Below, piece by piece: positions 33,467-59,678 of a stretch of DNA of 64,000 nucleotides (its first letter is position 1; every line of letters begins with the position of its first letter). The notes under the pieces were generated by a model. It was not told the DNA's origin. It was given only the letters and a program-made list of their open reading frames with translations, and made no database searches. The translations under genes and the position numbers were made by a program. The stretch comes from Parasphingopyxis sp. GTDB lineage: Bacteria > Pseudomonadota > Alphaproteobacteria > Sphingomonadales > Sphingomonadaceae. The DNA lies in assembly GCA_965212265.1 (NCBI GenBank), contig CBDBUZ010000007.1, positions 22,349-86,348 of the forward strand, given 5' to 3'.

Positions 33467-33495
33467 AAGTCCGCTTTGCGCGCGTAGCGGGCATT
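33467..33495. repeat. GTCCGCT...AGCGG hairpin repeat copy 1
   Basis: AAGTCCGCTTTGCGCGCGTAGCGGGCATT between converging CPBP and kinase stops. Confidence 0.7.
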
Positions 33496-33502
33496 CGCCT
33501 TC

Positions 33503-35863
33503 TCAATCTTCCAGTGATGGGCAATCTCCGATCCGTTCAAGCATCGGCACCATTCGATAGCGGGCGCTTGTCATGGGCAACTCATCGCGATCTTCGAAGT
33601 CGCGCATGACCTGGAGCGAAAACCGCATCAGCTTACACGCTTCCTCGCGGTCACCGATCTGCCAAAACACGTTAGAGGCTTCCTGCAGTCGGTGCGCATA
33701 ACGCATAGGCGTCGCCAATCCATTGCGGCCAGGCCACTCACTCCTGTTGGCATGGTCGAGGCCGATTTCCAGCATCTGCCGGGCTTCTTGATTGCGGCCA
33801 AGTGAAGCTGCCGTGTCCGCTCGGGTCAGCACTAATATTCCCAACGTCCTTTGAAGGTCATGATCATTCGGATCGGCGTCTCTCGCCGCTGCTGTCGAGG
33901 CGAAGACCGAGCGCAACACGCGATCCGCCAAGGCGGGTTGCTCGAGCATCAGATAGGTCTTTGCTAGATTTATGGAGATGGTCGCTAACTGCCTCTGCGC
34001 TGCAGGCGAGGAGCCGTTACTTGTTATGAAATCTCGTTGTGACTGCAATACCCGTTCAAAGCCGGCAATCGCCCCTTCGATATCGCCATCGACAATACGC
34101 AGTCCGGCAAGCAGGTGTCGCAGATCGATATAGGCATGCCGGATATCAGCAGATCGCTGCATTTCTTCTGGTGCTGCATTCACAATTTCCACCGCTCGTT
34201 CAAAAGCACGGCGGGTCCCCTCGATATCATCATTGCAACACCCCCGCGCATCGCCAAGATAGCGTAATGCTCGGACCTGCATCGCAACACTTTCAATCGT
34301 TGGTGTCTGCACCTCGTCCAGAAGATTGCGAGCTCGTTCAGCGTGACCAAGCGCCCCATGCGTATCGACATAAGTGAGCAGTTTATCGCGCGCTAAGCTT
34401 ATATGGACATTCGCCAATGGCAATCGAATCTCGTCGCCGGGTGCTTCATTATAGAGAGGTTCCAGTATTTCGGCGGCTCGCTCAAACAGCGCCAGACCCT
34501 CTGCAAGCTGGCCAATATTGCCGCTCGCCAGTGAACCCGTCACCGTCGCAAGTCGATAATAACCACGCCCCGCGGCCAAGCGCGTCTCAAGCGAGGCATC
34601 CGGATTGTTGGCCAGCGATTCCAGATATCGTTGTGCTGTCTGCGCAACGGTCAGGCGCGCCTTGGTGGCACCTGGAACTTCGCTCACGCGATCAAAAACA
34701 TCGAACATCATAATGTTGGCGAGGTCGCGCGTTTCAGAGAGCCGCTGTTCTGCCTCGGCGCGCGCGATATCGGTTTCTCTATATGCGGCGGACACCAATA
34801 CTAGCGCCGCAAAAACCGCAACGAAAACCGCCGCCACGGCTCCGGCTAATAGACGCTGACGGCGGACGAGCTTCCAGAAGAAATAGGACGGCCTGCCGTG
34901 GATCGCAGAGACCGGGCGATGATCACGGTGATTGTCGATATCCTCGATCAATGCTGAAACCGACGGATAACGATCATCCGGTTCGATTGAGGCCGCTTTG
35001 TTGGCAATCGCGATCAACTCGGTATCGCTTTTTTCGCCGATCAGTATTTTGAGCAGCATACCAAGTGAATAGGTGTCGGTCAGAGTATTGGCGGGTCCAC
35101 CGGATCGCTGTTCCGGGGCCGCAAACCCCGGTGTGTGGTCGGCTTGGCTGGGCTGCGCTAGATTGTCAGACTCTTCCGGCTTTGCGATACCGAAATCAAT
35201 GAGTTTGACTTGATTCTCGTCAGTTACAAGAATGTTAGGCGGGGTTAGGTCGCGGTGCACGACCAAGTGTTGATGAGCCGCTTCTACGGCACGGCAGATC
35301 TGGCGGAAGACCCAAATCCTGGTTTCAAGGTCACGCTCTGCAGCGTTCAGCCATTTGTCGAGCGATAGGCCGCTGACATATTCCATTACGAGATAAGGCG
35401 ATCCTTGGTCCGTCTCTCCGCCATCGAACAATCGCGCAATATTGGGATGATTGAGGTCGGCGAGTGTCTGCCGCTCACGACGAAATCGCTCGACGATTTC
35501 AGGATTGATCAACTGTTGTTTGACTACCTTGATCGCAACAATGTGATCGAAGTCTTTGGCGGCTCGTTCGGCAAGATAGACATTGCCCATACCACCGCGT
35601 CCAATAAGACGTAATATTCGGTACGCTCCGAGTTCGTCGGGGACATCATCTTCGATATCACTAAGGAAGGGAGCTCCCCCGGTTTGCAATGACTTGCGAG
35701 GTTCATCGCCTCCCTGCAGTAGCTTTAACACACGGCCCTTTGTTGCCTCGTCCAAATCATCGCGGACCAAGACTGATGCTTCACGATCAGCAGGTGGTTG
35801 ATCCAGTGCGCGCTCTAGAGCCTCTAACACCATCCGTTCGTTCGCCGCGTCGGTTCGGCTCAT
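33503..35863 (-). CDS. Membrane Ser/Thr protein kinase with C-terminal TPR-like domain
   Basis: GRGGMGNVY, VAIK, HRDLTPPN, DFG, APEQ; TM helix; helical C-terminal domain. Confidence 0.92.
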   Translation of the reverse strand: MSRTDAANERMVLEALERALDQPPADREASVLVRDDLDEATKGRVLKLLQGGDEPRKSLQTGGAPFLSDIEDDVPDELGAYRILRLIGRGGMGNVYLAERAAKDFDHIVAIKVVKQQLINPEIVERFRRERQTLADLNHPNIARLFDGGETDQGSPYLVMEYVSGLSLDKWLNAAERDLETRIWVFRQICRAVEAAHQHLVVHRDLTPPNILVTDENQVKLIDFGIAKPEESDNLAQPSQADHTPGFAAPEQRSGGPANTLTDTYSLGMLLKILIGEKSDTELIAIANKAASIEPDDRYPSVSALIEDIDNHRDHRPVSAIHGRPSYFFWKLVRRQRLLAGAVAAVFVAVFAALVLVSAAYRETDIARAEAEQRLSETRDLANIMMFDVFDRVSEVPGATKARLTVAQTAQRYLESLANNPDASLETRLAAGRGYYRLATVTGSLASGNIGQLAEGLALFERAAEILEPLYNEAPGDEIRLPLANVHISLARDKLLTYVDTHGALGHAERARNLLDEVQTPTIESVAMQVRALRYLGDARGCCNDDIEGTRRAFERAVEIVNAAPEEMQRSADIRHAYIDLRHLLAGLRIVDGDIEGAIAGFERVLQSQRDFITSNGSSPAAQRQLATISINLAKTYLMLEQPALADRVLRSVFASTAAARDADPNDHDLQRTLGILVLTRADTAASLGRNQEARQMLEIGLDHANRSEWPGRNGLATPMRYAHRLQEASNVFWQIGDREEACKLMRFSLQVMRDFEDRDELPMTSARYRMVPMLERIGDCPSLED

Positions 35864-36402
35864 TGATCTTGGCTCAATCGATCGTGTAACCAGATGCGCG
35901 AGGCTTGCCAGCGCCGTTTGACAGTCCGCACTGAGACATCAAGGACAGTTGCGATATCGCTAAGTGACATACCGCCAAAAAAGCGCATCTCCACAATATC
36001 GGCGCGCTCCGGATCAATTTCTCGCAACTCGAAAAGGTGTAAATCCAACGCTAGCAGTTCTATGGGTGCCTGCCATTCTGCAATGTCCGTCACGAGTGTG
36101 ACTTTAGTGTGATAGCGCTTTTCAGCATTGCGACGACGAGCCTGATCGACAAGTATCTGGCGCATCAGCGTCGTCGAAATGGCGAGAATATGCGCACGGT
36201 CGCTGAATTCCATCTCGGTCATGCGGGACAAACGGATGATTGCCTCGTTGATCAGGTCTCCAGTCGACAATGACGAGTGCAATTCTTGCGAGAGTTTCGC
36301 GGCAGCAATATCCCTGAGCTCATTATGAATCTCGCGCACCAGTGAGTCACCGGCGGTTACATCCCCAACCTGCCACTTGGCCATCAGTTCGCTGTGATTC
36401 AT
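35860..36402 (-). CDS. ECF sigma factor of the kinase-associated type (ECF43/TIGR02999-like)
   Basis: SLSTGDLINEAIIRL, LMRQILVDQARRR, IVEMRFFGGMS, TVKRRW; overlaps kinase start by 4 bp. Confidence 0.9.
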   Translation of the reverse strand: MNHSELMAKWQVGDVTAGDSLVREIHNELRDIAAAKLSQELHSSLSTGDLINEAIIRLSRMTEMEFSDRAHILAISTTLMRQILVDQARRRNAEKRYHTKVTLVTDIAEWQAPIELLALDLHLFELREIDPERADIVEMRFFGGMSLSDIATVLDVSVRTVKRRWQASRIWLHDRLSQDQ

Positions 36403-36495
36403 AGTCCGGCCCCCAGTTTCGGACAGATTCCAAGAATAGCCACAATTCTGTTGCAAATCCAAGATGTTTCAGACGGGGAGGCATAGTCACGCACG

Positions 36496-36699
36496 TCAGA
36501 AACCATAGCGATCCGCCACTGCAAGCAGGTCTTCTACTCGGCTTCCAATCTCAAGGTTCTGGCGCAGCCTGCGTTCGAGCCAGGCGCGCCGGCTCTCGGC
36601 AGGTTCGTTCAGTGCCTCTTCGAGCAAGGCCAAAACCTCTCGTTCCATGTCCATATTGACATCAGCTAGATCGGGCGGATCGGGCCGTGCATCGTCCAT
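36496..36699 (-). CDS. Small protein similar to the N-terminal segment of the neighbouring kinase
   Basis: EREVLALLEEALNEPAESRRA...RVEDLL vs kinase ERMVLEALERALDQPPADREA...RVLKLL; AAGGA RBS. Confidence 0.7.
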   Translation of the reverse strand: MDDARPDPPDLADVNMDMEREVLALLEEALNEPAESRRAWLERRLRQNLEIGSRVEDLLAVADRYGF

Positions 36700-36754
36700 T
36701 ATCTAATCCTTGGCGTCGCTCAAGATTCGTCAGTTGCAAAAATGATATGGATCA

Positions 36755-39700
36755 TCAAAACCGCCATCCAATCGTGGCTGACCCGGCAATGCCCTGCGCG
36801 TCCGAACCCACAAGCCCGCGAACATCGCCACCGATCGACCAGCCGCCGCCCAGTTGATACCGTCCGGCGATACTGAACAGTCCAGCGGAGCCATCAGTGC
36901 GGGGTGAACGAACGGAGAAAGCGCTGGCGGGTGCTCCGGCGATTCTCATTTCAACCTGGGACACACTGCTATGCCCATCGATATATTGGGCGCTCAGATC
37001 GAGACTGCCATTGGCGCCGTGCCAGTTGGCGAAAATACCGCCGCCAATCCGAGTGGCTTCATCGGAAGCTCCTCTGCTCGCGAGGTTGAGGCTGTTTGCT
37101 CCGGTTTCGCCGAAACTCCCGATATCGCCATCGGCAAAGAAAAATGAAGCAACCGGGCCTGCTGCCCAGCCGCCGCTACCCAGAGGCAGTCCGTAGCGAA
37201 GTTCGGCTTCCAGCGAGAGGGTTTCCATATCGACGCTGGCCTGTGTCAAACGCAATACTGTGCCAAAGGCGACCCCGCGCCGAACAGTGTTGTCGAGATT
37301 GCTATAGCTGAACGCCCCGGTCGCAGTGATCCCGCGATTGCCTGTTCCATATCGACCAAAGCCGCCGAGATGCCAGCCGTCGAAATCGGCAGTCGAACGG
37401 CGGGCATCGACATCCAGCTCGCCATCGACATGACCGACAGTAGCGCCGATCGCCCAACTGTTACTCGGTCCGCGATAGTCGATACCGAAATCGAAGCCGT
37501 AGCTATTGCTGTCAGCAACCGCCGCGTTACCGTCGCTATCAATTGAGCCGTCCCGGCCGGTGACTCCGCCCCAGGCACCCCAGCCTTCTCCGCTTGCCTC
37601 GTGGGCGCGCGCAACAAGCCGATCAGTGCGAACCATCGCATCATCCAGACCATTGGCCAGCAGAGAAGCGTATATCTCACCCGATGACGCGCTAAAGGCG
37701 GCCCGTGCCTGCGGCGCGGTCATAAACAGGATCTGCCTATAGACGCTCGCTGCATCGCTGCCCGCCGTCTGATCGAAATCGTCAAGGCCATTTGCCGCTC
37801 CTAGCTCATTATAGGTAACCGCGGCTGTCGGAAATAGCGGTGCGGGAAGCGGTGGAGGTGACGGAAGAGGTGGCATCGAAGGGGCAACGTTGTTGGGCGT
37901 CAACGCGAGCCCCACATCATTACCGTCTCCTGCCGTATAGTCGACCGACGGTGTCAGGAAAGCGAGCTCGTTGGTGATCGTTCCGAACTCGCCCATCACT
38001 GCGTCCATCGCATCATTGTCGATGATGAGGAAATTGAACGGGTTAGCGCCAGCAAAGCCGCCGCCGGCCATATCGAGAATGCGAAGTGTCGCATCGCCCA
38101 AAGTCACCGTGCCGTTGACGATCACGACATCATTGCCGCCCATCTCGTCAACCTCGACCTCGAAAACACTGTTCGCATCAAGCGTCAGATCGCCGGTTGT
38201 CAAGGACCCGATGCTATTGCCGGGCGCGAGGGTGCCGCCTGCCAAGGTCAGCGCGCCGATTGTGCCCGAACCCATGAAAACGGCACCTTCGCTGACAAAA
38301 ACGTCCAGCATCGACAGATCACCATTGGCGACGAATGTTCCGCTGCGCACCTCATATCGAGAGAATATACCGCCATCAGCATTGGCCGTCAGCGTGCCTG
38401 GTCCCTCTTGCGCGAATGTCTCGATCGAGGTGAAGTCGAAATCGTTGAGATCGACCGTCAGATTGTCAACATCGGCCGTTGTGAACAGCGCGGTATCATT
38501 GTTCGCGCCACCATCCGCAGCGACTGTGCTGCTCAGCATATCGAGCAGAAACACATCCTCGCCTTCGCCCAATGAGATCATGCCGGCAATCGCATGGCCA
38601 TTGGCGATAGAGACAGTGTCGTTGCCCGCTCCGCCGAGGAAATCGGCGGTGATAACCGTCCCGGACGCAATCGTGGCGCTATCGTCTCCGTCGCCGAGAT
38701 CGAGCGTGCCGTTGATCATGCCGCCCGTTTCGGTTTCGGCACGATCGGTATCATCGCCGAGCAGCACATCGCCATTGGAGACGCCGGTCGCGCGCAGCAG
38801 AAATATGTCGTCGCCATTGGACAGGTCGATCGCGGTGCCGCCCCCCCCTGTGATCGTTCCGGCCAGATCAACGCTGGTGGTATTGAGCGTCGGGACCACG
38901 GTATCGACGCGCTCACCATCGATAAACTGGATGTTGGTTGCCGTGTCTTGATCGCGAATTGCAATATCGCCCGCCGCAATGACGCTGGTTTCGTCGACGA
39001 TAATCCTGTTGTCCGATGGCTCGTTTATGCCCGTGAACGGGTCAAAATATGCGCGCACAAACACGCCGGTTGTGTCGGCACCGGCAACCATGATGGACCC
39101 GCTATTGATTACGTCGATAGCCAGAATCTGCACCGCCGAATTAACGCCGAAACCGGACCGCCCGTCGACCATTATCTCGCCGCCGTCGACGATCAGCCGT
39201 AGTTCCAGAATTTTGTCTCTGTTGAACCCGAATGGATCTTCGATAAAGATTCCGGCAGATTCTTCGCCACCGTTCGCTATAAGACTGCCCGATATCGTGA
39301 CCGCTGCCGATGCTGACATATCGATGCCACGCGCAGAGCCGCGACCGTCCGGACCGCTTCCGCCGATCGCTTCCACCCTGCCCTGAATGTCTATCCCGGG
39401 CAGAGCAGCGCCGAAACCGAACGGAAACTGGATGCCAAGCGCGGCGCCGCCGAATGCGGTTGTGCTGGGTCCGGTTACGCTGGCTTCTCCGCCAAACGCC
39501 TGCACCAGTCCTTCAACGACAAAGCGCGGGGCAATCGTGGAGCCTTCGCTCGACCGCGGGTTGAAGAAGATACCGAACGCAGCGCCGCCCCTGACAATTA
39601 CCTCCGCATCGTTGTCGGGATTGTTGATCAGTTCGGCATTGCCGGCCGTCGCAACGATATTGCCGACTTGCCGATAGACTGTGTCGTCGGTCGCGGTGAC

Positions 39701-41458
39701 TCCACCGCCGGAAGCACTACCACCAGTCAGCAGGCCAGATATATTCTCGCCAGTGATCTCCAGCCTAGCGTCGCCGCCAAATGTGGTGATCAGGTCTTCG
39801 AAGGAAAATTCGGTAACCGTAGTCGCGGCCGCCTGAGGAAAGCCGAAGTCGAAACTGAAGCCCGATGCACCGCCCCCGACACTGCGCGTCTCATAGTCGC
39901 GGCCATTGGCGATCGCGAGGCTATTGCCACCACGCGCCGTGATCGGTCCGCTAAATGTAAGGTCGAGCGAGAAGGAGCCGCCAGCTTCTCCCGCGCGCGC
40001 CGCGCCGCCCTCTGCTTCGACGGCATAACGCGGCGTTCCTTCGTTAACATCCGAATAGAGCGTGCCCGTCGTTGCCACACCAGTGCCGGTACCGACCGCG
40101 CGTGCATTGCCGCCGGTGACGTCGATAGAACCGTCAAAGGAAAACTCGGCATATTCCGTCGAGAACATGGTGATCGCGCTGGCAGTCTGCCCTCGGCTTC
40201 GCGCAAAGATCAGACCGGCCGTCTCGTCAACACCACCCAGCGAGGCGGTCGCCTCGGCGCTGCTGCTGCCGCCTACCACCACGATATCGCCAGTATAGTC
40301 GAGCCGTGTCAGTCCGTCCTGGTCGTCATTATCCGTGTCAGTCAAGATACCATATGCTGTCGGGTTGAACGCGGTCCCGCCGTCAGCGATCGCCATGCCC
40401 TGTCGCAAATCCGCGCCCGTGCTCGTTGATACTGCATGAATTGTGACATCGGCGCCGATTATGCTGACATCGCCTATCATCGTGAGGTCGACATTCTGAA
40501 ATCCGGGCAGATCCTCCGCATCGGGGTCGAACGAGAAAAAAGACGGCGCGTAGATACCGGTAAGACGAGCGAAAGTGACTTGGGCATCCGCGGTGTTGTC
40601 TACGCTCGAAGCAAAGACATTAGCTGCGCCGCCTGTGATCCTGATGTCGCCGGTCTGCGAGATTGCGAGGTCATCAAAACCCTCTGCAAAGATCCCATGG
40701 TTTTCGGTAACGGCATTGCGGAAACGGATGGTTCTCGCGCCCGCCGATCCGCCATTGGTATTGATCGTCGTAATGTTGCGCGTCCCGCCGTCCACGGCAA
40801 GCAAACCGGTGTTGGTCAGCGCGATATCGCCTGCCAGATTCTCAGCCCGGATCGCACCAAACCGACCTAATGTGATATCCGCTCGAAACGTATTTTCGGC
40901 GCTGAACACTGGCCTGGACACGTCGATATCGCCGATATGCGTGAAATTGATCTCCCCGCCAACGTTAAGCCCGAGGGCACCAAAATTATCAAACTGTCGA
41001 CTGCCGTTTGTTTCTGTGTAATTCGCTTGCGTTTGCCCGAAGATATCGCCGACCAGCTGGCCGCTGACTCCGCCATCGGTAATGATGTGGAAACCGGCTA
41101 TTCTTCTGTCGTCGCGTTCGTTCGGCGGCATCAATGCCATGCGGAAATTGCCCAAATCGGCATCGACAGTGACATCTAAACCTGCATCCTGGCGGAGGAA
41201 GAATCCGCGGCTGCCGATATCAGTCGTCAGATTCTCGAAAATGACGGTGCTGACGGTATTGGAGATCACGGCTCCCCCGCCGGAAACATCCCCATCGCAA
41301 GTCAGCACGCTATCGTTTACGCCGCCCGTTACGCAGCTGGCTTCTGCCGGACTCGGCACCAAGGCCAAGGTCGCGCCCATCGCCGCCAGCGCTACCCCAT
41401 GCTGCAATCCTGCTCTGGTCTCGAATTTCCGCCGGTATGCCATCGTTTTCCTCTCCAA
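36755..41458 (-). CDS. Autotransporter (type Va), Gly/Thr-rich passenger
   Basis: Signal peptide, beta-helix-like passenger, APGNSIG, Pro-rich linker, barrel region WGAWGG...ATIGWRF. Confidence 0.9.
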   Translation of the reverse strand: MERKTMAYRRKFETRAGLQHGVALAAMGATLALVPSPAEASCVTGGVNDSVLTCDGDVSGGGAVISNTVSTVIFENLTTDIGSRGFFLRQDAGLDVTVDADLGNFRMALMPPNERDDRRIAGFHIITDGGVSGQLVGDIFGQTQANYTETNGSRQFDNFGALGLNVGGEINFTHIGDIDVSRPVFSAENTFRADITLGRFGAIRAENLAGDIALTNTGLLAVDGGTRNITTINTNGGSAGARTIRFRNAVTENHGIFAEGFDDLAISQTGDIRITGGAANVFASSVDNTADAQVTFARLTGIYAPSFFSFDPDAEDLPGFQNVDLTMIGDVSIIGADVTIHAVSTSTGADLRQGMAIADGGTAFNPTAYGILTDTDNDDQDGLTRLDYTGDIVVVGGSSSAEATASLGGVDETAGLIFARSRGQTASAITMFSTEYAEFSFDGSIDVTGGNARAVGTGTGVATTGTLYSDVNEGTPRYAVEAEGGAARAGEAGGSFSLDLTFSGPITARGGNSLAIANGRDYETRSVGGGASGFSFDFGFPQAAATTVTEFSFEDLITTFGGDARLEITGENISGLLTGGSASGGGVTATDDTVYRQVGNIVATAGNAELINNPDNDAEVIVRGGAAFGIFFNPRSSEGSTIAPRFVVEGLVQAFGGEASVTGPSTTAFGGAALGIQFPFGFGAALPGIDIQGRVEAIGGSGPDGRGSARGIDMSASAAVTISGSLIANGGEESAGIFIEDPFGFNRDKILELRLIVDGGEIMVDGRSGFGVNSAVQILAIDVINSGSIMVAGADTTGVFVRAYFDPFTGINEPSDNRIIVDETSVIAAGDIAIRDQDTATNIQFIDGERVDTVVPTLNTTSVDLAGTITGGGGTAIDLSNGDDIFLLRATGVSNGDVLLGDDTDRAETETGGMINGTLDLGDGDDSATIASGTVITADFLGGAGNDTVSIANGHAIAGMISLGEGEDVFLLDMLSSTVAADGGANNDTALFTTADVDNLTVDLNDFDFTSIETFAQEGPGTLTANADGGIFSRYEVRSGTFVANGDLSMLDVFVSEGAVFMGSGTIGALTLAGGTLAPGNSIGSLTTGDLTLDANSVFEVEVDEMGGNDVVIVNGTVTLGDATLRILDMAGGGFAGANPFNFLIIDNDAMDAVMGEFGTITNELAFLTPSVDYTAGDGNDVGLALTPNNVAPSMPPLPSPPPLPAPLFPTAAVTYNELGAANGLDDFDQTAGSDAASVYRQILFMTAPQARAAFSASSGEIYASLLANGLDDAMVRTDRLVARAHEASGEGWGAWGGVTGRDGSIDSDGNAAVADSNSYGFDFGIDYRGPSNSWAIGATVGHVDGELDVDARRSTADFDGWHLGGFGRYGTGNRGITATGAFSYSNLDNTVRRGVAFGTVLRLTQASVDMETLSLEAELRYGLPLGSGGWAAGPVASFFFADGDIGSFGETGANSLNLASRGASDEATRIGGGIFANWHGANGSLDLSAQYIDGHSSVSQVEMRIAGAPASAFSVRSPRTDGSAGLFSIAGRYQLGGGWSIGGDVRGLVGSDAQGIAGSATIGWRF

Positions 41459-41630
41459 AATGAGTGCCGGGAAAAATGGTCACTCACCAAAGAAGGCGCA
41501 AAACAGCGGAGAAAGGGGCCAAAATTGTTTCTGGCGCGAAGACCCAAGAAGGTATTGGGGGGCGAGGCCTCACAGGAAATCGAAGCGAGGGATCAACGGT
41601 AACCAGGACAAATAGACCGGCAGATCAAGC

Positions 41631-41654
41631 GTCCGCTTTCGGCCAATTGCAGTC
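41631..41654. repeat. Hairpin repeat copy 2
   Basis: GTCCGCTTTCGGCCAATTGCAGTC; first 17 bp identical to the copy at 50481. Confidence 0.75.
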
Positions 41655-47057: not shown

Positions 47058-47061
47058 TCGA

Positions 47062-50163: not shown

Positions 50164-50221
50164 TGCGGATCAGCAGAGAAGCCGCCTCACAAACATTACC
50201 GCCATTTCAAAACACCATTGC

Positions 50222-50443: not shown

Positions 50444-50480
50444 AAATGTCTCGTCACGTTTCTAGGAGACCAACAACACT

Positions 50481-50506
50481 GTCCGCTTTCGGCCAATAGC
50501 GGAAAT
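50481..50506. repeat. Hairpin repeat copy 3
   Basis: GTCCGCTTTCGGCCAATAGCGGAAAT. Confidence 0.8.
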
Positions 50507-50553
50507 CTCTACCTTTGATCAATTGTCGGCTACAGCAAGTCGTCAAAGGAATA

Positions 50554-51513: not shown

Positions 51514-51564
51514 GTGAGCGATTTTGGCGAGTTGCTAGGCAATGTGCAATCTCGAACGGGAAGG

Positions 51565-51614
51565 GTCCGCTTTCGGCCAGAAGCGGAACGTCCGCTTTCC
51601 ACCCATTGCGGATC
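51565..51614. repeat. Hairpin repeat copies 4 and 5 (abutting)
   Basis: GTCCGCTTTCGGCCAGAAGCGGAAC + GTCCGCTTTCCACCCATTGCGGATC. Confidence 0.85.
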
Positions 51615-51645: not shown

Positions 51646-52053
51646 ATGGAAATCACGCGGCCTCTCACGATCATTGTCAGAGCCACACTGGCTGCCGCTC
51701 TGCTGCATGGGTGTGATACGGCCATGCGTGTTCCACATGACGAGATTGCTGGATGCTATTTGTTTCCGAGCGGTGAGCCAGCCCTGCATCTAACAGGCGC
51801 ACATGCAGTCGATATTCGGACAGGAGAAACTATCGCCGAATATGGTGCACGGGATAACGAGGTTGGTTCCGTCGTTCGATTTTCACCGTCTTTGCGAATC
51901 CGTCAATCTTCCGGCCAGATGGAGATAGTATCGCACGATGAGGATCACCTATATGCTCCAATCAGAAAATCGGGAGAGGGAATTGCCTTGTTCATTCCCG
52001 AGTTTGATCTTGGCGGCGTTCATTTAGAGCGCTCTCCATCGGGCGATTGCTGA
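51646..52053 (+). CDS. Hypothetical lipoprotein
   Basis: ALLHGC lipobox-like signal. Confidence 0.6.
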   Translation: MEITRPLTIIVRATLAAALLHGCDTAMRVPHDEIAGCYLFPSGEPALHLTGAHAVDIRTGETIAEYGARDNEVGSVVRFSPSLRIRQSSGQMEIVSHDEDHLYAPIRKSGEGIALFIPEFDLGGVHLERSPSGDC

Positions 52054-52096
52054 GGATCAGGATGAACCAGACCAACCCTCCCATACTGGGAAAATC

Positions 52097-52306
52097 ATGG
52101 ATTCTTGGTTCGGAATAATTTGGGTTATCGCGCTGGCGGGCTGGACATACGCCAGTGTTTTCTATGTGCCCTGGTGGTTGGCGCGGAAATCTGATGACCC
52201 CATTCCGATGGACAGGCCCAGGCTCCTGAAAATCCTGTTTGGATATGGCTTGTTCGCGATTGTGATTTTTCTTGTTGCTGGCCCAAGACTGTATCAGGGT
52301 TCCTAG
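52097..52306 (+). CDS. Small two-TM hypothetical protein
   Basis: Two hydrophobic helices in 69 aa. Confidence 0.5.
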   Translation: MDSWFGIIWVIALAGWTYASVFYVPWWLARKSDDPIPMDRPRLLKILFGYGLFAIVIFLVAGPRLYQGS

Positions 52307-52330
52307 CGGAATCAGTGCCAAAAAACAGAA

Positions 52331-52428
52331 GGTCCGCTATCGGCCAATAGCAGACCATCGCCGTAGTTGAGACGGGCGAGTGTCGGCTGGGTTGATCTAA
52401 CGTCCGCTTTTGGCCGAAAGCGGACATT
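52331..52428. repeat. Hairpin repeat copies 6 and 7 (opposite orientation)
   Basis: GGTCCGCTATCGGCCAATAGCAGACC (52331-52356) and AACGTCCGCTTTTGGCCGAAAGCGGACATT (52399-52428). Confidence 0.85.
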
Positions 52429-52487
52429 ACGAATTTTCATCTTTTTGCCGAACTACAAGGTAGCAGTCATTCGGTCTGATCTTGGAC

Positions 52488-53309
52488 TTAGTGCCAAGCT
52501 GGCTTCCGCTTCTCCAAAAAGGCCATCACGCCTTCGGCGGTATCTTCCTCCAACATATTTTGCGTCATAACCTGCGCGGTATATTCGTATGCTTGCTCCA
52601 ACGGCATTTCCAGTTGGCGGTAGAAGGCCTCTTTCCCGATTTTCAATGCGACGGGCAGCTTGTCGGCAATTATCGAGGCGAGAGCCAATGTTTCTGAGTG
52701 AAGCGTATCGGGAGAAACAGCGCGATTGATCAATCCCAATTCAGCCGCTTGTGCCGCATCAAGGAAGTCGCCGGTTGCGAGCATCTCGAACGCACGTTTG
52801 CGGGCGATATTGCGGGATAGAGCAACCATCGGTGTTGAGCAGAACAACCCGATGTTCACTCCATTTACACCAAATTTCACATTATCCGCTGCGATGGCCA
52901 GATCACAACTGGCAACCAGCTGGCATCCCGCTGCAGTCGCCACACCCTGGACTTCGGCTATCACAGGTTTCGGCAGTTTCACGATGGTCTGCATCATCGA
53001 CGAACAATCGGCGAAAAGTTCTTGATAGAATTTCTGCCCGCCGTCGGCTTGTTTCGACGCATCCGACATTTCTTTCAGATCATGACCGGCGCAATAGGCA
53101 TTGCCGCAAGCTCGCAATATGACGACGCGACATTCTTCGTCTTTGGCGACACCGGCAAACGCGCCCTGCAACTGGCCGATCATCTCTTTAGACAACGCGT
53201 TGTAGTTTTCGGGACTATCCAGCGTGATAGTCACGATACCTTGGGATGTCTCCGTTTCGACAAGAACACTCAAGACGTCATCCTTTGGGTCATTCCAAAC
53301 TTCAGGCAA
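52488..53309 (-). CDS. Enoyl-CoA hydratase/isomerase
   Basis: YCAGHDLKE, ATAAGCQLVASCDLA, GLFCSTPMVALSR. Confidence 0.93.
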   Translation of the reverse strand: MPEVWNDPKDDVLSVLVETETSQGIVTITLDSPENYNALSKEMIGQLQGAFAGVAKDEECRVVILRACGNAYCAGHDLKEMSDASKQADGGQKFYQELFADCSSMMQTIVKLPKPVIAEVQGVATAAGCQLVASCDLAIAADNVKFGVNGVNIGLFCSTPMVALSRNIARKRAFEMLATGDFLDAAQAAELGLINRAVSPDTLHSETLALASIIADKLPVALKIGKEAFYRQLEMPLEQAYEYTAQVMTQNMLEEDTAEGVMAFLEKRKPAWH

Positions 53310-53329
53310 TTTTCGTCGCTTTACCCCGT

Positions 53330-54352
53330 CTATGAAAATTCTCTTCGATAGTCACGCGGTGTGAAATCGCTCCAGCGCTTGAAAGCATGGGAGAAGTTAC
53401 CGGGTTCGCTGAAATTCAAGCGGGATGCGATTTCGGAAAGGGGCAGCTGCGTTTCCTTCAGATAATGCTTGGCTAGCTCGAAGCGGGCTTCATCAAGGAT
53501 GGCCCGATAGGTGGTTCCCTCATCGTTCAAACGCCGCCTCATCGTGCGGTATGACATGCCCAATTCACTCGCGAGTGTTTGAGCTCCGGGGAAATCGCCC
53601 TGATACAGGGCCAGCCGATACCGCACCCGGTCCGCCTGCGTCGCGCTGTCGTCGACTTCGGCAACCTGTCGCTCGCACTCGCGGGCACAAAACTCTGTCG
53701 TGACGGGATTATGTTGCGGTGGCTGAACATCCATCTGGTGCGGCTGGATCGCTATTGCATATCTGTCCGCATGATAAATGATTTCGCAGTTATAATGGTT
53801 GGAGTAGTCCAAGGCGTTATCCGATGGTCCGTGCATCAGGCTTACCTGATCCAGAGCTATCTTTCCCCCGACTACCTGATTCAAGATAAGCACAGCCGCC
53901 ATCATGTCTCGGTCGACAAGAATTTCCCGACAGGCGCCGAAATCAGCCACCGGGTTTAACTCAATAACCGCAGCATTGCTGGTCTCGACAAATGCATAAT
54001 GAAAAAAGGCGTAGGTCAATGACTGAAATTGCAGTGCCAATCGGATGGACTCGCGCAGCGTCTGTGCGCTCATAATGGCAAGCCCCCAAATGCCGTAATT
54101 TTCGATCCGGTATTCCGAGCCAATTTCGAGTCCGATCGGCGTATCGCAATCCAGGTTTGCCACATTGCGGTAAAAAGCCAGTTCCTGCGACAGTGGTATT
54201 CTACGCTCAGGGTCGGTTAGCGAACGTTCCGTTATCCCGGTCGATTGCAAGCAGGTCGTGCGATTATGGCCGAGCCTTTCAAGGCAGGCCAGCGCGACTT
54301 CGATAGTCTTGGTTTTGTTTGGTGAGAGAATTTCGGCCTGCAACAGCGCCAC
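53330..54352 (-). CDS. AraC family transcriptional regulator
   Basis: RTMRRRL, IASRLNFSEPGNFSHAFKRW. Confidence 0.92.
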   Translation of the reverse strand: MALLQAEILSPNKTKTIEVALACLERLGHNRTTCLQSTGITERSLTDPERRIPLSQELAFYRNVANLDCDTPIGLEIGSEYRIENYGIWGLAIMSAQTLRESIRLALQFQSLTYAFFHYAFVETSNAAVIELNPVADFGACREILVDRDMMAAVLILNQVVGGKIALDQVSLMHGPSDNALDYSNHYNCEIIYHADRYAIAIQPHQMDVQPPQHNPVTTEFCARECERQVAEVDDSATQADRVRYRLALYQGDFPGAQTLASELGMSYRTMRRRLNDEGTTYRAILDEARFELAKHYLKETQLPLSEIASRLNFSEPGNFSHAFKRWSDFTPRDYRREFS

Positions 54353-54521
54353 CTTGCATAAAGTATCCTGACGTTAGCGGTTTACGCTGCATGGCCAGAA
54401 ATCACAAGTTTATGGCCGATAGCAACATTCTATCGCCCCGTCATAATCCATATAGCGTCGCGATATTAAGCGTCGTGCGCTCGTTCTTTTCGAGATGGCG
54501 CGAAAAATCGGGAAGGGCAAT

Positions 54522-54935
54522 ATGGAACATTTTTTGACGCCGGTTCTGGCGCTTATTCTTTGGACGTTCGTCATGTGGATCTGGTTTCTGGCGCTCCGCG
54601 TTCCCGCCATGAACGCCATTTCCAGCAACACACAGGATTTTGTCGAAGACCCTAGTCTCATGGACAGGATGCCGGACCGGGCAAAATGGTCTGGGGACAA
54701 TTATAATCATCTGCACGAACAGCCTGTGCTGTTTTATGCGCTGATGTTCTACCTGTTTCTGGTTCAGGTAACACCGGACTGGATGCTGTATCTCGCCTGG
54801 GGCTACGTGGTCAGCCGCGTAATACACAGCCTCGTCCAATCGATTAGCAATAAATTGATGGTGCGCTTTTCGCTCTTTGCGCTGGGCTCTTTCATGCTGT
54901 TCGCAATGGGGATCGGTGCCATTCTGGCACTATGA
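54522..54935 (+). CDS. MAPEG family protein
   Basis: NYNHLHEQPVLFY, YVVSRVIHS. Confidence 0.88.
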   Translation: MEHFLTPVLALILWTFVMWIWFLALRVPAMNAISSNTQDFVEDPSLMDRMPDRAKWSGDNYNHLHEQPVLFYALMFYLFLVQVTPDWMLYLAWGYVVSRVIHSLVQSISNKLMVRFSLFALGSFMLFAMGIGAILAL

Positions 54936-54961
54936 TCCAAGCCCATAGGAAAGGCTAAAAT

Positions 54962-56326
54962 ATGCCAAAGCAAATTCACATCAACGCTTTTTCGCAATGT
55001 TCGATTAGTCCACAATCAAAGGGGCAATGGAAAAACCCGGCGGACAAATCCTCGGCTGGCTACAAGGACGTCGACTATTGGGTTGATCTGGTGAAGACGC
55101 TGGAACGCGGTTGCGTCGATGCTCTGTTCTTTGCTGATATTCACGGCGTTTATGATGTCTATGGCGGCAACATCAATGCTGGCGTTCAGCACGCCGTTCA
55201 GTTCCCCGGCAATGATCCGACAACACTGGCAACCGTTTTGGCGCGGGAGACAGAGAGTATTGGATTGATCTTCACGCTGTCGACGACCTATTATCCGCCG
55301 TTCCACGCCGCGAAACTATTCTCATCGCTGGATCATTTCACCGATGGTCGGGTCGGCTGGAATATCGTCACATCCTATCTGGAGAGTGCTTACAAGAATG
55401 GCTTGGGCGGAACGCCGCTGGAGCATGATGCGCGCTATGACCAGGCCGATGAATATATGGATGTGGTGTACAAGCTGTGGGAGCATAGTTGGGACGAAGG
55501 TGCGGTCGTTCGGAATGTCACAGACGATGTGCATACCGATCCGTCAAAAGTGCATTTGATCAATCATGAGGGCACGCACTATTCGGTTCGCGGCCCGCAT
55601 ATGTGCGAGCCATCACCGCAGCGGACACCTCTACTGGTTCAAGCGGGACAAAGTGGCCGTGGCATGACATTCGGCACCAAACATGCCGAAGCTTTGTTTG
55701 TAGCATTCCGCAGTCTGGAAGAAGCCAAGACCAAGACAAAAGAAATTCGCGATCTGGCGGAAGCTGCTGGCCGAGCCAGAGATAGCGTTAAGCTGCTGAT
55801 GGGTATTTGCCTGATCGTTGGCGAGACCGAAGCCGAAGCAAAAGCGAAATATGAGGAATATCTGTCTTATGCGTCACCCGAAGGCGCATTGGCGCTGTTC
55901 GGTGGCTGGACGGGCATTGATCTGGCGGGCATCGAACCCGATGCTGTGCTCGGCAATATGGAGAGCGACGGGATGCAGTTTCTCGCCCAATGGTTCAACA
56001 GCGATGATCCTGACAGGCAGGCGACACTTGGCGATGTCATGAAACATATGTCGATTGGCAGTCTTGCCGACGTCATTGTTGGTGATCCCAAGCAAGTCGC
56101 GGATCAATTGGAAGAGCTTGTCGACGTCGGCGGAGTTGACGGGTTCAACGTTATCCCTGTTGCGCAACCGGCCAGTGCGCTTGAACTGGTTGATCTTCTC
56201 ATCCCTGAATTGCAGCGGCGCGGACGTTTCCGGACGGAATATGAAGGTAACACCATTCGCGAGAGCTTCATGGGCGTAGGCAATGCACGCCTTGAATCCA
56301 ACCATCCGGCATTGGCAATAAAATGA
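54962..56326 (+). CDS. LLM-class flavin-dependent monooxygenase (NtaA/SnaA/DszA family)
   Basis: LFFAD, DHFTDGRVGWNIVTS, PSPQRTPLLVQAGQSGRG, FRTEYEG.TIRE. Confidence 0.93.
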   Translation: MPKQIHINAFSQCSISPQSKGQWKNPADKSSAGYKDVDYWVDLVKTLERGCVDALFFADIHGVYDVYGGNINAGVQHAVQFPGNDPTTLATVLARETESIGLIFTLSTTYYPPFHAAKLFSSLDHFTDGRVGWNIVTSYLESAYKNGLGGTPLEHDARYDQADEYMDVVYKLWEHSWDEGAVVRNVTDDVHTDPSKVHLINHEGTHYSVRGPHMCEPSPQRTPLLVQAGQSGRGMTFGTKHAEALFVAFRSLEEAKTKTKEIRDLAEAAGRARDSVKLLMGICLIVGETEAEAKAKYEEYLSYASPEGALALFGGWTGIDLAGIEPDAVLGNMESDGMQFLAQWFNSDDPDRQATLGDVMKHMSIGSLADVIVGDPKQVADQLEELVDVGGVDGFNVIPVAQPASALELVDLLIPELQRRGRFRTEYEGNTIRESFMGVGNARLESNHPALAIK

Positions 56327-56922
56327 ACATGTTGAAGATATTTGGCGAGCGTCTGAGCCGCACTGAGCGCGTCCTATGGGCTGCCGATGAATGCGGCGTT
56401 TCCTACGACCATATCCCGGTACCCGTGAATGGAGAGAAAGGAGAGGCGCTGCTCGCGATCAACCCCGATGGCGCGATCCCGACAATCGATGATGACGGTT
56501 TTATCGCGACCCAATCCTGGGCGATAACACTCTATCTGGCGCGCCAATATGGCGGCGCTCTTGCCAGCCGAACTAATCAGGAAGAAGCTGACATCTTGCG
56601 CTGGAGCTTCTGGGCGGCATGCGATGTAGAGGCGACGATAATCGACATGATCCACGCCACCGGAATGCTCCCTGAAGACGAGGCCGATCCGGCGCGTTTC
56701 GCCGAAGGTGTTGAGAAGCTGCAGCGCCCTCTCGCTTCGCTCGAAAGGGCGCTTGAAGGTCGGGATTACATTACCGGCGGGCGCTTCACGATTGGCGATC
56801 TGAACGCGGTGTCGATCGTTTCATGGCTCGCGCTGCTTGGTTTCGATTTCACCAAATTTCCGAATGCGAAAGCGTGGGTTGATCGCTGCATGAAGCGGCC
56901 GAATTTTCCGAAGCGCGGCTGA
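56323..56922 (+). CDS. Glutathione S-transferase
   Basis: INPDGAIPTI, TQSWAITLYL, RFTIGDL. Confidence 0.9.
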   Translation: MNMLKIFGERLSRTERVLWAADECGVSYDHIPVPVNGEKGEALLAINPDGAIPTIDDDGFIATQSWAITLYLARQYGGALASRTNQEEADILRWSFWAACDVEATIIDMIHATGMLPEDEADPARFAEGVEKLQRPLASLERALEGRDYITGGRFTIGDLNAVSIVSWLALLGFDFTKFPNAKAWVDRCMKRPNFPKRG

Positions 56923-56955
56923 AATGACAATTAGGTATTGAAGGGGAGAACATCC

Positions 56956-58305
56956 GTGACTGCTGAACAGAATAAGTTCGACGCAATTGTCATCGGCACC
57001 GGACCGGGAGGAGGAATGGTTGCACGTGATCTGACCAAATACGGTAAGAAGGTGCTGATCCTTGAACGTGGTGACTACAAACCCACCACGGGCAAGTTGG
57101 GCCAGACTTTATCGCGAGGATACATCCCGGGGACGCAGCTGCCGCTGACCAAAAGCGGCAAACCAATATTGCGCGGGATTACAACGGGTGGGACATCAAA
57201 CTTCTATACCGCAACAGCTTATCCGCCCAATTACGAACTGCTGGAACGTTATGGCGTGAACATCCGGCAGGAAATCGAGGATGTTCGCAGCGAACTGCCG
57301 ATTGCGCCGATCAAAGATGAGCTAATGAGCCCGGCTGCCGAGCTGTTCATGAAAACCTCTCGTGAGCTGGGCTATGATTGCCAGAAGTTCGACAAATACA
57401 TCTATCAGGATCGCTGCCTACAAAATTGCGATAGCTGCATCATGGGCTGCCCGAATGATGCGAAATGGAATTCGCGCTATCTGGTGGATGAGGCGATTGA
57501 AAATGGTGCCGAGATTATCAACGGCGCGATGGTCGAGAAAATCATCTCCGAAGGCGATATTGCGATTGGTGTGGAATACAAGACCGGCCGGAAAACGACC
57601 AAAGTCTACGCCGACCGAATTGTTCTGAGCGCGGGTGGTATTGGCTCGCCTTTGGTTCTCCGCAAAAGCGGTTTTGAAAACGTCGGTGAAGATGTTTGCG
57701 GAGACCCGCTGATGGTTGTGATTGGCAAGATCGAAGGGTTGAAAGGCACAGGCAAAGCCGTGCCAATGATGACCGGTTTCCATCTGAAAGAGGATGGCAT
57801 CATGTTCTCCGATCTGGCCATGCCCAAGATCATGAAAAAGCTGTTCGATGCGCATGCTTTCAACTTCACCAAGATGGGGGAATATGAGGATATTCTGCCA
57901 ATCATGGTGAAAATCAGGGATGACCTATCCGGCAAAATCATAAACAACGGGCTGGTCGACAAACCCACTTCCGAAGCTGATCAGGCGAAGCTCAATAAGG
58001 GCAAGGCGATTGCCGAAGAAATCCTGAAAAAAGCGGGCGCGAAGAAAACCTATGCCACCCGCGTTCTGGCCGCGCATCCGGGCGCTGGCATCAAACTTGG
58101 CCAGCATCTCGATGAAAATCTAAAGACGCACAATTTCGATAATCTCTATGTCTGCGATGCCTCGGTTTTCCCCGAACCACTAGGCCTCCCGCCATCGCTC
58201 TCGATATTGGGCATGGGCAAGCGCCTGGCCAAACACCTCGCGGAGCAGAACAGCATGGGTGGACGTGTTGCAGGCGAGGGTACCGAGATGATCGCTGCCG
58301 AATAG
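56956..58305 (+). CDS. GMC family oxidoreductase
   Basis: IGTGPGG, CLQNCDSCIMGCP, LSAGGIGSP, HPGAG, VCDASVFP. Confidence 0.88.
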   Translation: MTAEQNKFDAIVIGTGPGGGMVARDLTKYGKKVLILERGDYKPTTGKLGQTLSRGYIPGTQLPLTKSGKPILRGITTGGTSNFYTATAYPPNYELLERYGVNIRQEIEDVRSELPIAPIKDELMSPAAELFMKTSRELGYDCQKFDKYIYQDRCLQNCDSCIMGCPNDAKWNSRYLVDEAIENGAEIINGAMVEKIISEGDIAIGVEYKTGRKTTKVYADRIVLSAGGIGSPLVLRKSGFENVGEDVCGDPLMVVIGKIEGLKGTGKAVPMMTGFHLKEDGIMFSDLAMPKIMKKLFDAHAFNFTKMGEYEDILPIMVKIRDDLSGKIINNGLVDKPTSEADQAKLNKGKAIAEEILKKAGAKKTYATRVLAAHPGAGIKLGQHLDENLKTHNFDNLYVCDASVFPEPLGLPPSLSILGMGKRLAKHLAEQNSMGGRVAGEGTEMIAAE

Positions 58306-58338
58306 CTGATCCAAGGACTGAACTTAAGAATCTTGCCG

Positions 58339-58368
58339 AATGTCCGCTTTGGGCGCAAAGCAGACGTT
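58339..58368. repeat. Hairpin repeat copy 8
   Basis: AATGTCCGCTTTGGGCGCAAAGCAGACGTT. Confidence 0.85.
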
Positions 58369-58536
58369 CCCTGCCCTGCTCAGATTATTCCCTGATCCTC
58401 GCCAATTTTTCCCTGTTATCTGATTCAGGGAATTTTCCCTCTAACGTGCAGAATAGCGCTACATTTTGGCCATGAGATGTGCAGTTTCGGCATGAGATCT
58501 CATGATTTCCCTGCATTTTCACGGATAACAGGGAAA
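58367..58536. repeat. Cluster of TTCCCTG/CAGGGAA motifs with 13-bp inverted repeat
   Basis: TTTCCCTGTTATC (58408-58420) / GATAACAGGGAAA (58524-58536) plus further heptamer copies. Confidence 0.8.
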
Positions 58537-58566
58537 TGTGATCAGAGACTGGTTCGCTCGAGACTG

Positions 58567-58587
58567 CATCCCGCACCACCCAGTTCC
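58567..58587 (+). repeat. att-like direct repeat, right copy
   Basis: CATCCCGCACCACCCAGTTCC, 20/21 identical to the tRNA-Thr 3' end and flank. Confidence 0.8.
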
Positions 58588-58783
58588 CAGAATCTGACAT
58601 GGCTGCACTTTTGGACCAGCTGGGCCTCAAGTCAGGGCGGGTTTGGTGGATGATGCCATCGTCGGCCTTCGGTGCAGATCAGTGTATCCGGCCTTGCACT
58701 GAACCGAGCCGCTGAACCCTCCGGTTCAGGCGGCGACCATGTGTCACACTACAATTGTCAGTATGCGCTACTAGTCCAGTCGC

Positions 58784-58811
58784 AATGTCCGCTTCGGCGC
58801 ATTGCGGACAT
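58784..58811. repeat. Hairpin repeat copy 9
   Basis: AATGTCCGCTTCGGCGCATTGCGGACAT. Confidence 0.8.
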
Positions 58812-58894
58812 AAACTATATGCAGCAATCTGCGTCTTAAGGGCGGCTGCCCTGAGAACGGACAGGGACATTCGTTGACTGATACTTCCCCGAAA

Positions 58895-59647
58895 ATGCAA
58901 TCGCTTGTTACCGGCAACATCCGGCTGGCCGCAACCGTCATGCTCATTCGCAATGGTGCAGCGAGTCTTGAAGTGTACATGGTGCAGCGGCCAGGGCGTG
59001 GCGATTTTCCGGATGTACACGCTTTTCCCGGAGGCAAAGTGGACGCGGATGATTTTGCCCCTGAGTCTTGCTTCGGCCTCCAGGATCCAGATGCAAGCAA
59101 ACAACTGGGAATTGCTGCTGGGGGTCTTCGCTATTGGACTGCCGTAGCGCGGGAGTGCTTTGAGGAGTGCGGTGTATTGCTCGTGCGCAAGGAAGGCGCT
59201 CCAATCGCCTTTGACGACCGGGCTGTCATGCGATTTCACGATCACAGGGAACGATTATTGGCGAATGAAGTCACCTTCAGCGACATTTGTCGAGTGGAAG
59301 GTCTTCAGGTGGACTGCAAGCGCCTCGGCTATTTCAGTCACTGGATCACGCCTGCAGTCGTCCCTCGCCGGTTTGATACGCGCTTTTTTGTTGCGGCGAT
59401 GCCAAGCGACCAATCGACGCATGCGCACACTCTTGAGACAGCAGATGATGAGTGGGTCCAGCCAGATATTGCCCTTGCAAACAAGAATTCGGGCCATTGG
59501 CAACTGATTGATCCAACCCTGCGATCTCTGGAAACCTTGTCTCAGTACCGGTCCGTGGAAACCCTGCTGGCAGGCATTCGGCAAGGCAACCATCTCATGC
59601 CGTTGACAGAATCGCTTTCCAGCCAGGGCATGCAAACACTGCGCTGA
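58895..59647 (+). CDS. NUDIX hydrolase (NUDT19-like)
   Basis: AFPGGKVD, ARECFEECG, HWITP, RRFDTRFF; start 58895 or 58874. Confidence 0.9.
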   Translation: MQSLVTGNIRLAATVMLIRNGAASLEVYMVQRPGRGDFPDVHAFPGGKVDADDFAPESCFGLQDPDASKQLGIAAGGLRYWTAVARECFEECGVLLVRKEGAPIAFDDRAVMRFHDHRERLLANEVTFSDICRVEGLQVDCKRLGYFSHWITPAVVPRRFDTRFFVAAMPSDQSTHAHTLETADDEWVQPDIALANKNSGHWQLIDPTLRSLETLSQYRSVETLLAGIRQGNHLMPLTESLSSQGMQTLR

Positions 59648-59654
59648 TGCGGCT

Positions 59655-59678
59655 GACCGCTTTCGACCCAGAGCGGAC
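59655..59678. repeat. Hairpin repeat copy 10
   Basis: GACCGCTTTCGACCCAGAGCGGAC, 7 bp after the NUDIX stop. Confidence 0.75.

Follow-up and report, generated by a model that had tools for sequence, protein, structure and literature searches.

Short repeats that lie between bacterial genes, and sites at which accessory genes are gained or lost, are known in several forms. The attC sites of integrons are 57-141 bp long and carry R''-L''...L'-R' boxes and extrahelical bases, and pdif sites alternate in orientation. Classical repetitive extragenic palindromes (REPs) mark old core DNA, and acquired islands have been described as 'REP deserts' (PMC3390384). The neisserial dRS3 repeat (ATTCCC-N8-GGGAAT) is a phage integration target that has been proposed to mediate gene insertion and rearrangement, on the one hand as the target of a recombinase and on the other by favouring exchange with DNA that enters the cell (PMC3898611). 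The strain-specific genes of many free-living bacteria are mostly located in additive islands next to tRNA genes. In Alteromonas, additive flexible genomic islands occupy tRNA/tmRNA hotspots and hold variable cassettes, whose entry is described as illegitimate recombination (PMC4898812). Here, we report on a family of polar palindromes of about 30 bp in a 64,000-nt stretch of DNA from Parasphingopyxis sp. (the window, C7:22349-86348 of a 2.86-Mb, 26-contig assembly that is 92% complete and is called G000 below), which appear to be the joints of a cassette system inside tRNA-linked additive islands.

Judged from sequence comparison, the probability that these palindromes (referred to as hairpins) are recombination joints is about 0.75, and that of the whole statement, in which cassette joints recombine by way of a sequence-specific enzyme that acts in trans and is not encoded in G000, is roughly 0.4. 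A first-pass annotation of the window had listed ten copies, all intergenic and placed at the junctions of functional blocks. With nhmmer, all ten were recovered at these places (Table 1); they lie between genes according to our own gene calls, which are crude and were made in the present analysis, and the genes and blocks between copies were typed by Pfam and gene calls. The pattern GTCCGCT-N10-AGCGGAC, with at most two mismatches, has nine matches in the window against 0.34 expected, a number that none of 100 shuffles reaches; one of the nine (at 5340, within a gene) corresponds to the chance level. A repeat finder independently retrieved the family and showed the first 17 bases to be identical in the copies at 41631 and 50481, as had been noted before. 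Single-strand folding is better than that of shuffles in seven of the ten copies (z -1.8 to -4.1), and the copies at 33467 and 41631 are degraded. The lack of copies in the first 29 kb, also remarked on in the earlier annotation, held in the nhmmer search (none at 1-29 kb) and is explained by the rpoBC and ribosomal-protein genes that make up this region; no family member was found by nhmmer at 60-64 kb either.

The full consensus of the site is (G/C)AAyGTCCGCwwTGGGCGCAAAGCGGACrTTC, or AAyGTCCGC-N12-GCGGACrTT in short. It consists of 6-bp terminal inverted repeats, GTCCGC and GCGGAC, around a variable centre, and these are usually extended to AAyGTCCGCwwT...AAAGCGGACrTT. The two hexamers and the AAAG that precedes the second are conserved at 90% or more. 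The central six bases occur as a few types (GGGCGC, GGGTGG, and YGGCCR), and it is the asymmetric ones among these that lend the site its polarity. Covariation between the arms does not exceed that of shuffles, 80 of 500 of which reach the observed score (pair counts, 40 copies). The conserved trait is the sequence and not merely the fold. This is hard to reconcile with the notion that the hairpins are bidirectional intrinsic terminators, which we regard as highly improbable. It is true that they are stable, that one copy has a T tract and that convergent spacers, with 18 of 50 copies against 16% of intergenic bases, are over-represented. As a family, however, they lack the T tract, which follows one of the nine copies in 41-60.5 kb and thus agrees with the earlier remark that most have no U-tract; compensatory changes are not in excess; no core operon contains a hairpin, ten copies lie in divergent spacers, some copies lie in divergent promoter regions, and no Rfam family matches the repeat.

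When polarity was scored for copies whose two strands differ by at least 3 bits, and neighbours 110-4000 bp apart were compared, 82 of 90 neighbouring pairs were co-oriented (p about 1e-16). This number comprises 9/10 pairs in G000, 26/29 in G016 (the nearest relative, a complete, repeat-rich genome of the same genus with ~89-91% identity in conserved DNA), 2/3 in other genus members, and 45/48 at 120 loci from other taxa. Neither the direction of adjacent genes nor the replication strand, as judged by GC skew, accounts for this polarity, and the genes inside arrays face both directions. The arrays are therefore head-to-tail series of sites, such as Campbell-type insertion of one-site circles would yield.

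A profile made from the best copies was searched against the genome, and relatives were scanned as well; the family was found in G000 and in genus members. G000 holds ~54 copies, 51 of which are intergenic by this census, and they are strongly clustered in ~12 arrays. Every array starts next to a tRNA gene of its own: Lys, Met, Thr-TGT, Thr-GGT, Val, Gly, Arg (twice), Phe, Gln, Glu, and Leu. Of the 54 copies, 24 are no more than 5 kb away from a tRNA gene (vs 15% of random positions) and 51 no more than 30 kb (vs 58%), and the arrays of G016 likewise adjoin tRNA or tmRNA genes. The cassette genes in the window and in other arrays are accessory, such as the kinase/ECF/autotransporter block, EamA, LysR, hydrolases, aox, amidohydrolase, CMD, enoyl-CoA hydratase, GMC oxidoreductase, NUDIX, GST, SDR, adenylate cyclase, sulfotransferase, MGMT, AsnC with LysE, PLP decarboxylase, and many small proteins of no known kind; no mobility gene was detected among the genes between hairpins in the window and the other arrays examined.

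The window shows how such an array is placed. Homology with all 17 genus relatives that were compared stops at ~29450, just past tRNA-Thr(TGT), and nothing between 29.45 and 64 kb is syntenic in any of them. The 15-nt sequence GCACCACCCAGTTCC at the 3' end of this tRNA gene recurs as an attR core at 58573-58587, on account of which 29.45-58.59 kb is a classical tRNA-integrated island without an integrase. The window copies lie within this 29-kb island, which is missing in all 17 relatives, and just past it. The module at the island end has about four or five related copies in G000, on contigs C7, C8, C16, and C20, and this recurrence suggests a single family of elements that integrate at tRNA genes and have lost their integrase in G000.

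Comparison with G016 carries most of the argument for recombination at the hairpins. Sixteen 20-kb stretches around its repeat copies were compared with G000, and the breakpoints between the two genomes coincide with the repeats to within a few bases, as expected by the first-pass annotation. None of the 74 hairpins in these stretches lies inside a homology block; 21 are at block edges and 53 in species-specific DNA. A spread of copies through core intergenic regions was not seen: they are confined to variable DNA and its borders. Of 74 internal block ends, 18 are no further than 10 bp from the edge of a hairpin, whereas ~1% of the DNA is that close, and in 16 cases both genomes have a hairpin at most 40 bp away from the block end. 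In junction alignments, identity spans the whole hairpin and ends at its edge; the end of homology varies from the outer hairpin edge to the inner arm, with no single fixed base. At the tRNA-Gln, tRNA-Gly, and tRNA-Val loci, common flanks and their bordering hairpins enclose different hairpin-separated units (4 vs 2; 3 vs 2; and ~9 small units vs one 2.9-kb gene, respectively). Several junctions are located 22-260 nt past the tRNA gene, away from its att core, which indicates exchange at the hairpin and not by the island integrase. Other loci have their breakpoint at the end of the tRNA gene, and both hairpin exchange and tRNA-end integration therefore occur.

Cassettes are also shared between arrays. 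A 2.9-kb hairpin-bounded unit (MGMT, AsnC, LysE, and a prolyl aminopeptidase-like protein) is 96.5% identical between G000 and G016, while its flanks are 89% identical; it belongs to the tRNA-Phe array in G000 and directly follows tRNA-Pro in G016. In addition, one G016 array has as neighbours cassettes that come from three G000 arrays.

These data also bear on another view, in which the hairpins are passive passengers: REP-like or 3'-end-stabilising elements brought in from donor lineages, with breakpoints close to them since nearly every spacer has one. Forty of 50 copies indeed lie in tandem or convergent spacers near the 3' ends of genes, the hairpin-bearing half of the window has a lower GC content, and in other taxa (Pseudolabrys, Sphingomicrobium, and others) very dense hairpins occur between ordinary genes. 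Yet passengers should not place block ends so close to hairpin edges, nor should bordering hairpins be kept while the interior is replaced, and neither the strong co-orientation, which is independent of gene direction, nor the ten copies in divergent spacers would be expected. We consider this explanation distinctly unlikely.

Among species of the genus, copy number ranges from 0 to about 50 (0 to ~97 repeat-model matches per genome when both strands are counted), and ~3% of an even sample of 400 genomes from the class carry the repeat. The exact degenerate pattern occurs at 120 or more loci in named genomes. Most of these are alphaproteobacterial, belonging to Pseudolabrys and other Xanthobacteraceae, Sphingomicrobium, Sphingomonas, Caulobacter, and Phenylobacterium, with Henriciella, Altericroceibacterium, Rhizobium, and Hyphomicrobium as further carriers; a few are beta- or gammaproteobacterial (e.g., Lysobacter soli) or from outside Proteobacteria. 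Copies at these loci are often arranged in doublets or triplets ~45 bp apart. In Pseudolabrys and other Xanthobacteraceae (L021-L140), such triplets flank paralogues of an ABC-transporter substrate-binding protein at 32 of 120 loci. The same site is carried by conjugative plasmids of Erwinia and Pantoea and by one Sphingomonas plasmid; no significant match to the repeat was obtained in a phage collection.

On the Pantoea agglomerans ZJU23 plasmid NZ_CP068441.1 (L227, 153.4-155.0 kb), a NUDIX gene is bracketed by one copy upstream and a doublet downstream, an arrangement that mirrors the NUDIX unit of the window. The possibility that the hairpins travel with the NUDIX gene was rejected: none of the loci of 80 metagenomic NUDIX homologues (47-73% identity) has a hairpin. 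As homologues elsewhere are free of them, the presence of hairpins depends on the cassette context, not on the gene itself.

The following scheme would account for these observations. Briefly, cassettes may be cut out and inserted by recombination that breaks and rejoins DNA within the palindrome. A pair of direct copies would release the DNA between them as a one-site circle, and insertion of this circle at any resident copy would again leave two sites in the same orientation. The exchange would most likely be catalysed by a sequence-specific enzyme that is supplied in trans and not encoded in G000; such an enzyme is favoured because the sequence of the site, and not just its folding, has been kept across classes and on plasmids. 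In that case, the arrays of G000 would be orphans, much like integrase-less attC clusters. Whole islands come in by the usual route, in which an integrase inserts them at the 3' ends of tRNA genes. The integron-like module assembly proposed in the first-pass annotation is thus retained in part. Co-oriented sites and the sharing of cassettes between arrays agree with it, but the arrays make up the cargo of islands that are of the classical tRNA-integrated type and have att repeats, and they are not a stand-alone platform; the largest array of G016 sits in islands with two P4-type integrases, which explain the location at tRNA genes and not the hairpin joints. A still wider claim is that of an undescribed system for cassette exchange, widespread in Alphaproteobacteria and present in some Gammaproteobacteria, that recombines at the palindrome by means of an enzyme moving circles in trans and would in function be an 'integron without an integron'. 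This is possible, and we hold it to be doubtful.

A number of results weigh against the scheme, and above all against its enzyme. The hairpin-recognising recombinase or transposase postulated earlier was not found: no enzyme was identified for the site, and Y1, serine, and small Xer-like tyrosine recombinases all fail to co-occur with it. No Y1/RAYT transposase (PF01797) is present in G000 or in the repeat-rich genus members searched (G016 being outside that search), and 14 of 18 further genomes with hairpins lack it as well. Serine recombinases (PF00239) are lacking in G016, the hairpin-richest relative, and in several other carriers. The three PF00589 matches of G000 are an XerC-like protein, an XerD-like protein, and a 573-aa integrase on contig C4, away from the arrays; neither these nor the two serine recombinases of the genome adjoin any of its arrays. 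A tyrosine recombinase of ~206 aa, discussed below, has 20 carriers in an unbiased sample of the class, 18 of them without hairpins. Circular intermediates were not seen in the read data, where the apparent joints 50500>52402 and 50503>51567 are cross-matches between hairpins, with no more than 20-21 nt on one of their sides. Moreover, 30 bp of repeated sequence is roughly sufficient for occasional RecA-dependent crossovers, from which the same footprints are expected, and since the in-depth comparison covers one species pair at ~90% identity, individual events are inferred and not observed.

The latter points lead to the main rival of the enzyme-driven scheme, in which the joints need no dedicated enzyme. 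The repeat would provide portable homology, and incoming hairpin-flanked DNA, delivered by transformation, gene transfer agents, or conjugation, would be exchanged by RecA-dependent crossovers in the 30-bp repeats. For RecA-dependent exchange, 30 bases are the lower limit, which tells against this route; on the other hand, no recombinase co-occurs with the repeats, and the variable end of homology between outer edge and inner arm also speaks for it. A mode of action of this kind has been proposed for repeat arrays and minimal mobile elements of Neisseria (PMC3898611). Co-oriented copies would presumably also result from homologous integration of the Campbell type. A mere patch of homology, however, offers no reason for the constancy of the sequence across classes and on enterobacterial plasmids, and it leaves unexplained how flanking copies were first acquired, for instance by the NUDIX gene, whose homologues elsewhere have none. 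On balance, we find exchange by RecA rather unlikely as the whole explanation.

With regard to candidates for an enzyme, the ~206-aa tyrosine recombinase consists of a catalytic domain only; it is most similar to XerA, XerC, and XerD, with scores that reach none of the curated cut-offs. It occurs as a hairpin-flanked single-gene unit in G016, G014, G007, and five other carriers, and is flanked by hairpins in every hairpin-bearing genome where it is intact. G007 has only two repeat-model matches, which may be the two hairpins beside its recombinase gene. The gene is enriched in hairpin-bearing genomes (5/16 independent genomes vs 20/401, p 0.0014) and is lacking in G000. It is a weak lead for the enzyme and may be just another cassette. 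In the class as a whole, about 5% of genomes have it, usually without hairpins, often at contig ends and with a GC-rich hairpin after the gene.

Other candidates were rejected. XerCD would act at dif, and the canonical host dif at C17:~56935-56962, ATCCCGATAATATACATTATGTTAAAT (ATCCCGATAA-TATACA-TTATGTTAAAT), is unrelated to the hairpin arms. Clustering of the open reading frames (ORFs) at 120 hairpin loci gave as recurrent neighbours only the substrate-binding-protein paralogues and housekeeping genes, and no recurrent transposase. The outer TGTCCG may be reminiscent of resolvase half-sites, but serine recombinases are lacking in carriers such as G016. At C4:43588-46865, a 228-aa resolvase-type serine recombinase lies beside the 573-aa tyrosine integrase, in a small mobile element unrelated to the arrays.

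The features of the window and the related loci are listed in Table 1. The autotransporter of block 1 has a 75% identical copy elsewhere in the relative G008, and the portion of block 2 at 44773-50141 is syntenic with contig C23 of G002 at ~70%. Within block 2, 43199-43448 and 44386-44635 form an inverted duplication of ~250 bp with 83% identity over the LysR/eamA control region. Just past the island, 58636-58794 has 72-79% identity to DNA ~0.7 kb from the genes of 539-aa large serine recombinases in G014, G002, and G004, and is probably the end remnant of another integrating element. The tRNA-Thr(TGT) gene is the only one of 47 tRNA genes with a T-arm GTCCG-N7-CGGAC followed by AT, like the outer stem and flank of the hairpin; the spacing is 7 vs 12 nt and the likeness may be due to chance (about 5%), so it is treated as a curiosity. 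Fragments nearly identical to the window are present in coral-reef and estuary metagenomes, from which the organism is probably marine; a look through sequencing runs gave no RNA run with this sequence.

Table 1. Hairpin copies (nhmmer coordinates), the units between them, island borders, and related loci; positions are those of the window unless a contig or locus is named.
Feature	Position	Strand	Remarks
tRNA-Thr(TGT), island left border	29368..29443	+	ARAGORN, Rfam
attL core GCACCACCCAGTTCC, tRNA 3' end + 9 nt	29438..29452	+	read from sequence
hairpin copy, degraded	33465..33496	+	between convergent CAAX protease and Ser/Thr kinase genes
block 1: Ser/Thr kinase, ECF sigma factor, small ORF, autotransporter	33503..41458	-	Pfam, gene calls
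hairpin copy, right arm degraded	41627..41654	-	10 nt past 3' end of NAD(P)-binding protein gene
block 2: NAD-binding protein, EamA, LysR, alpha/beta hydrolase, aox/trHb/DUF1971, TPR protein, CMD, small ORFs	41665..50443	.	Pfam
hairpin copy	50477..50507	+	between small ORF and convergent amidohydrolase gene
single-gene unit, Amidohydro_2 protein	50554..51513	-	Pfam
two abutting hairpin copies, 51564-51587 and 51585-51612	51564..51612	.	second copy with CCACCC loop, minus polarity
unit of one or two small ORFs	51646..52321	.	no Pfam family match
hairpin copy, sole window copy with T tract (minus strand)	52328..52359	-	
hairpin copy, perfect palindrome, 10-bp stem	52398..52429	.	0 mismatches; -10.3 kcal/mol, z -4.1
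block 3: enoyl-CoA hydratase, AraC regulator, further genes to GMC oxidoreductase	52488..58305	.	Pfam, gene calls
hairpin copy, first element of conserved island-end module	58338..58370	+	
island-end module: TTCCCTG direct repeats, inverted repeat TTTCCCTG-N16-CAGGGAAA, partial degenerate tRNA 3' end (GGTTCGCTCGAGACTGCGTCCCGCACCA), attR core GCACCACCCAGTTCC	58371..58587	+	
hairpin copy	58782..58812	-	62 nt upstream of NUDIX gene
NUDIX gene, single-gene unit bracketed by two hairpins, outside attR	58874..59647	+	Pfam
hairpin copy	59652..59680	+	5 nt past NUDIX stop codon
other island-end module copies	C8:125144-125420, C8:124944-125040, C16:105785-105900, C20:19347-19423		
~206-aa recombinase loci	L011:13106-13732 (G016); L142:10468-11100 (G014); L144:5201-5830 (G007); L028:472-1047; L138:3408-3944; L188; L189		

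A defined, polar 30-bp palindrome at the joints makes the vague process of cassette entry into additive islands testable. Should an enzyme exist, integron-like capture of cassettes would have been invented a second time and independently; if there is none, a short selfish repeat would render accessory genes modular by serving as portable homology. Either way, the repeat model can be put to practical use in locating flexible DNA and the borders of cassettes, both in genomes and in metagenome bins from these groups.

Traits that set the hairpins apart from classic REPs and attC sites, and mostly from terminators with a U-tract, were named in the first-pass annotation, and the distinction was upheld against each class. 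The hairpins resemble REP, BIME, and REPIN elements in being short, imperfect, many-copy intergenic palindromes that lie mostly near gene 3' ends, form some close doublets and vary in number between species. Unlike these, they have neither a RAYT nor a GTAG/GGAG head (the consensus begins nnnAATGTCCGC..., as had been observed), they are conserved across classes and not species-specific, and their confinement to variable DNA is the opposite of the REP distribution, in which islands are the deserts (PMC3390384).

With attC arrays, including the clusters of attC sites without an integrase (CALINs), the hairpins share co-oriented, hairpin-forming sites between accessory cassettes, most of which contain a single gene and some of which are common to several arrays, as well as arrays that lack an enzyme. 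In contrast to integrons, there is no IntI, attI, or Pc, genes face mixed directions, and the site is a 30-bp near-perfect palindrome without R''/L''-L'/R' boxes or extrahelical bases; instead of one array beside intI, G000 has ~12, each at a tRNA gene. As to the attC cores RYYYAAC/GTTRRRY, said earlier to be missing, the full cores are indeed absent, but the outermost triplets read AAC...GTT, the inner part of attC R boxes, in ~40% of the genome copies. Taken together with the lack of Y1 described above, these differences make it hardly credible that the family represents classical REPs or REPINs kept by a RAYT, or integron attC sites. As for pdif modules, the hairpin site can similarly be read as ~28 bp with two 11-bp inverted arms around a 6-bp centre and likewise flanks small accessory modules. 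It differs in that the sites are in direct and not alternating orientation, and a dif-like site was rejected as the arms bear no likeness to the host dif, ATCCCGATAA TATACA TTATGTTAAAT.

A limited literature search gave no description of the palindrome or of gene cassettes joined by such a site, and queries with sequence strings returned only primers. The repeat itself is closest in kind to neisserial dRS3. Like dRS3 and the NIME arrays, it has 6-bp terminal inverted repeats (here GTCCGC-N12-GCGGAC) and a variable centre, and its arrays are linked with gene gain and loss. Nevertheless, dRS3 separates non-coding RS elements of 30-160 bp and has ~700 copies per genome throughout the chromosome, whereas the ~54 copies in G000 separate genes and are found in tRNA-linked islands only; for the Nf1 phage and the Piv/IS110-type enzyme of dRS3, no counterpart was identified here, in searches that were not aimed at IS110. 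The islands themselves are best compared with the additive islands of Alteromonas, with which they have in common differing cassette sets beside tRNA genes in close relatives, partial tRNA repeats, and some cassettes of higher similarity than the core (PMC4898812). The difference lies in the joints: no common joint sequence is described for Alteromonas (PMC4898812), whereas here they are marked by a conserved palindrome.

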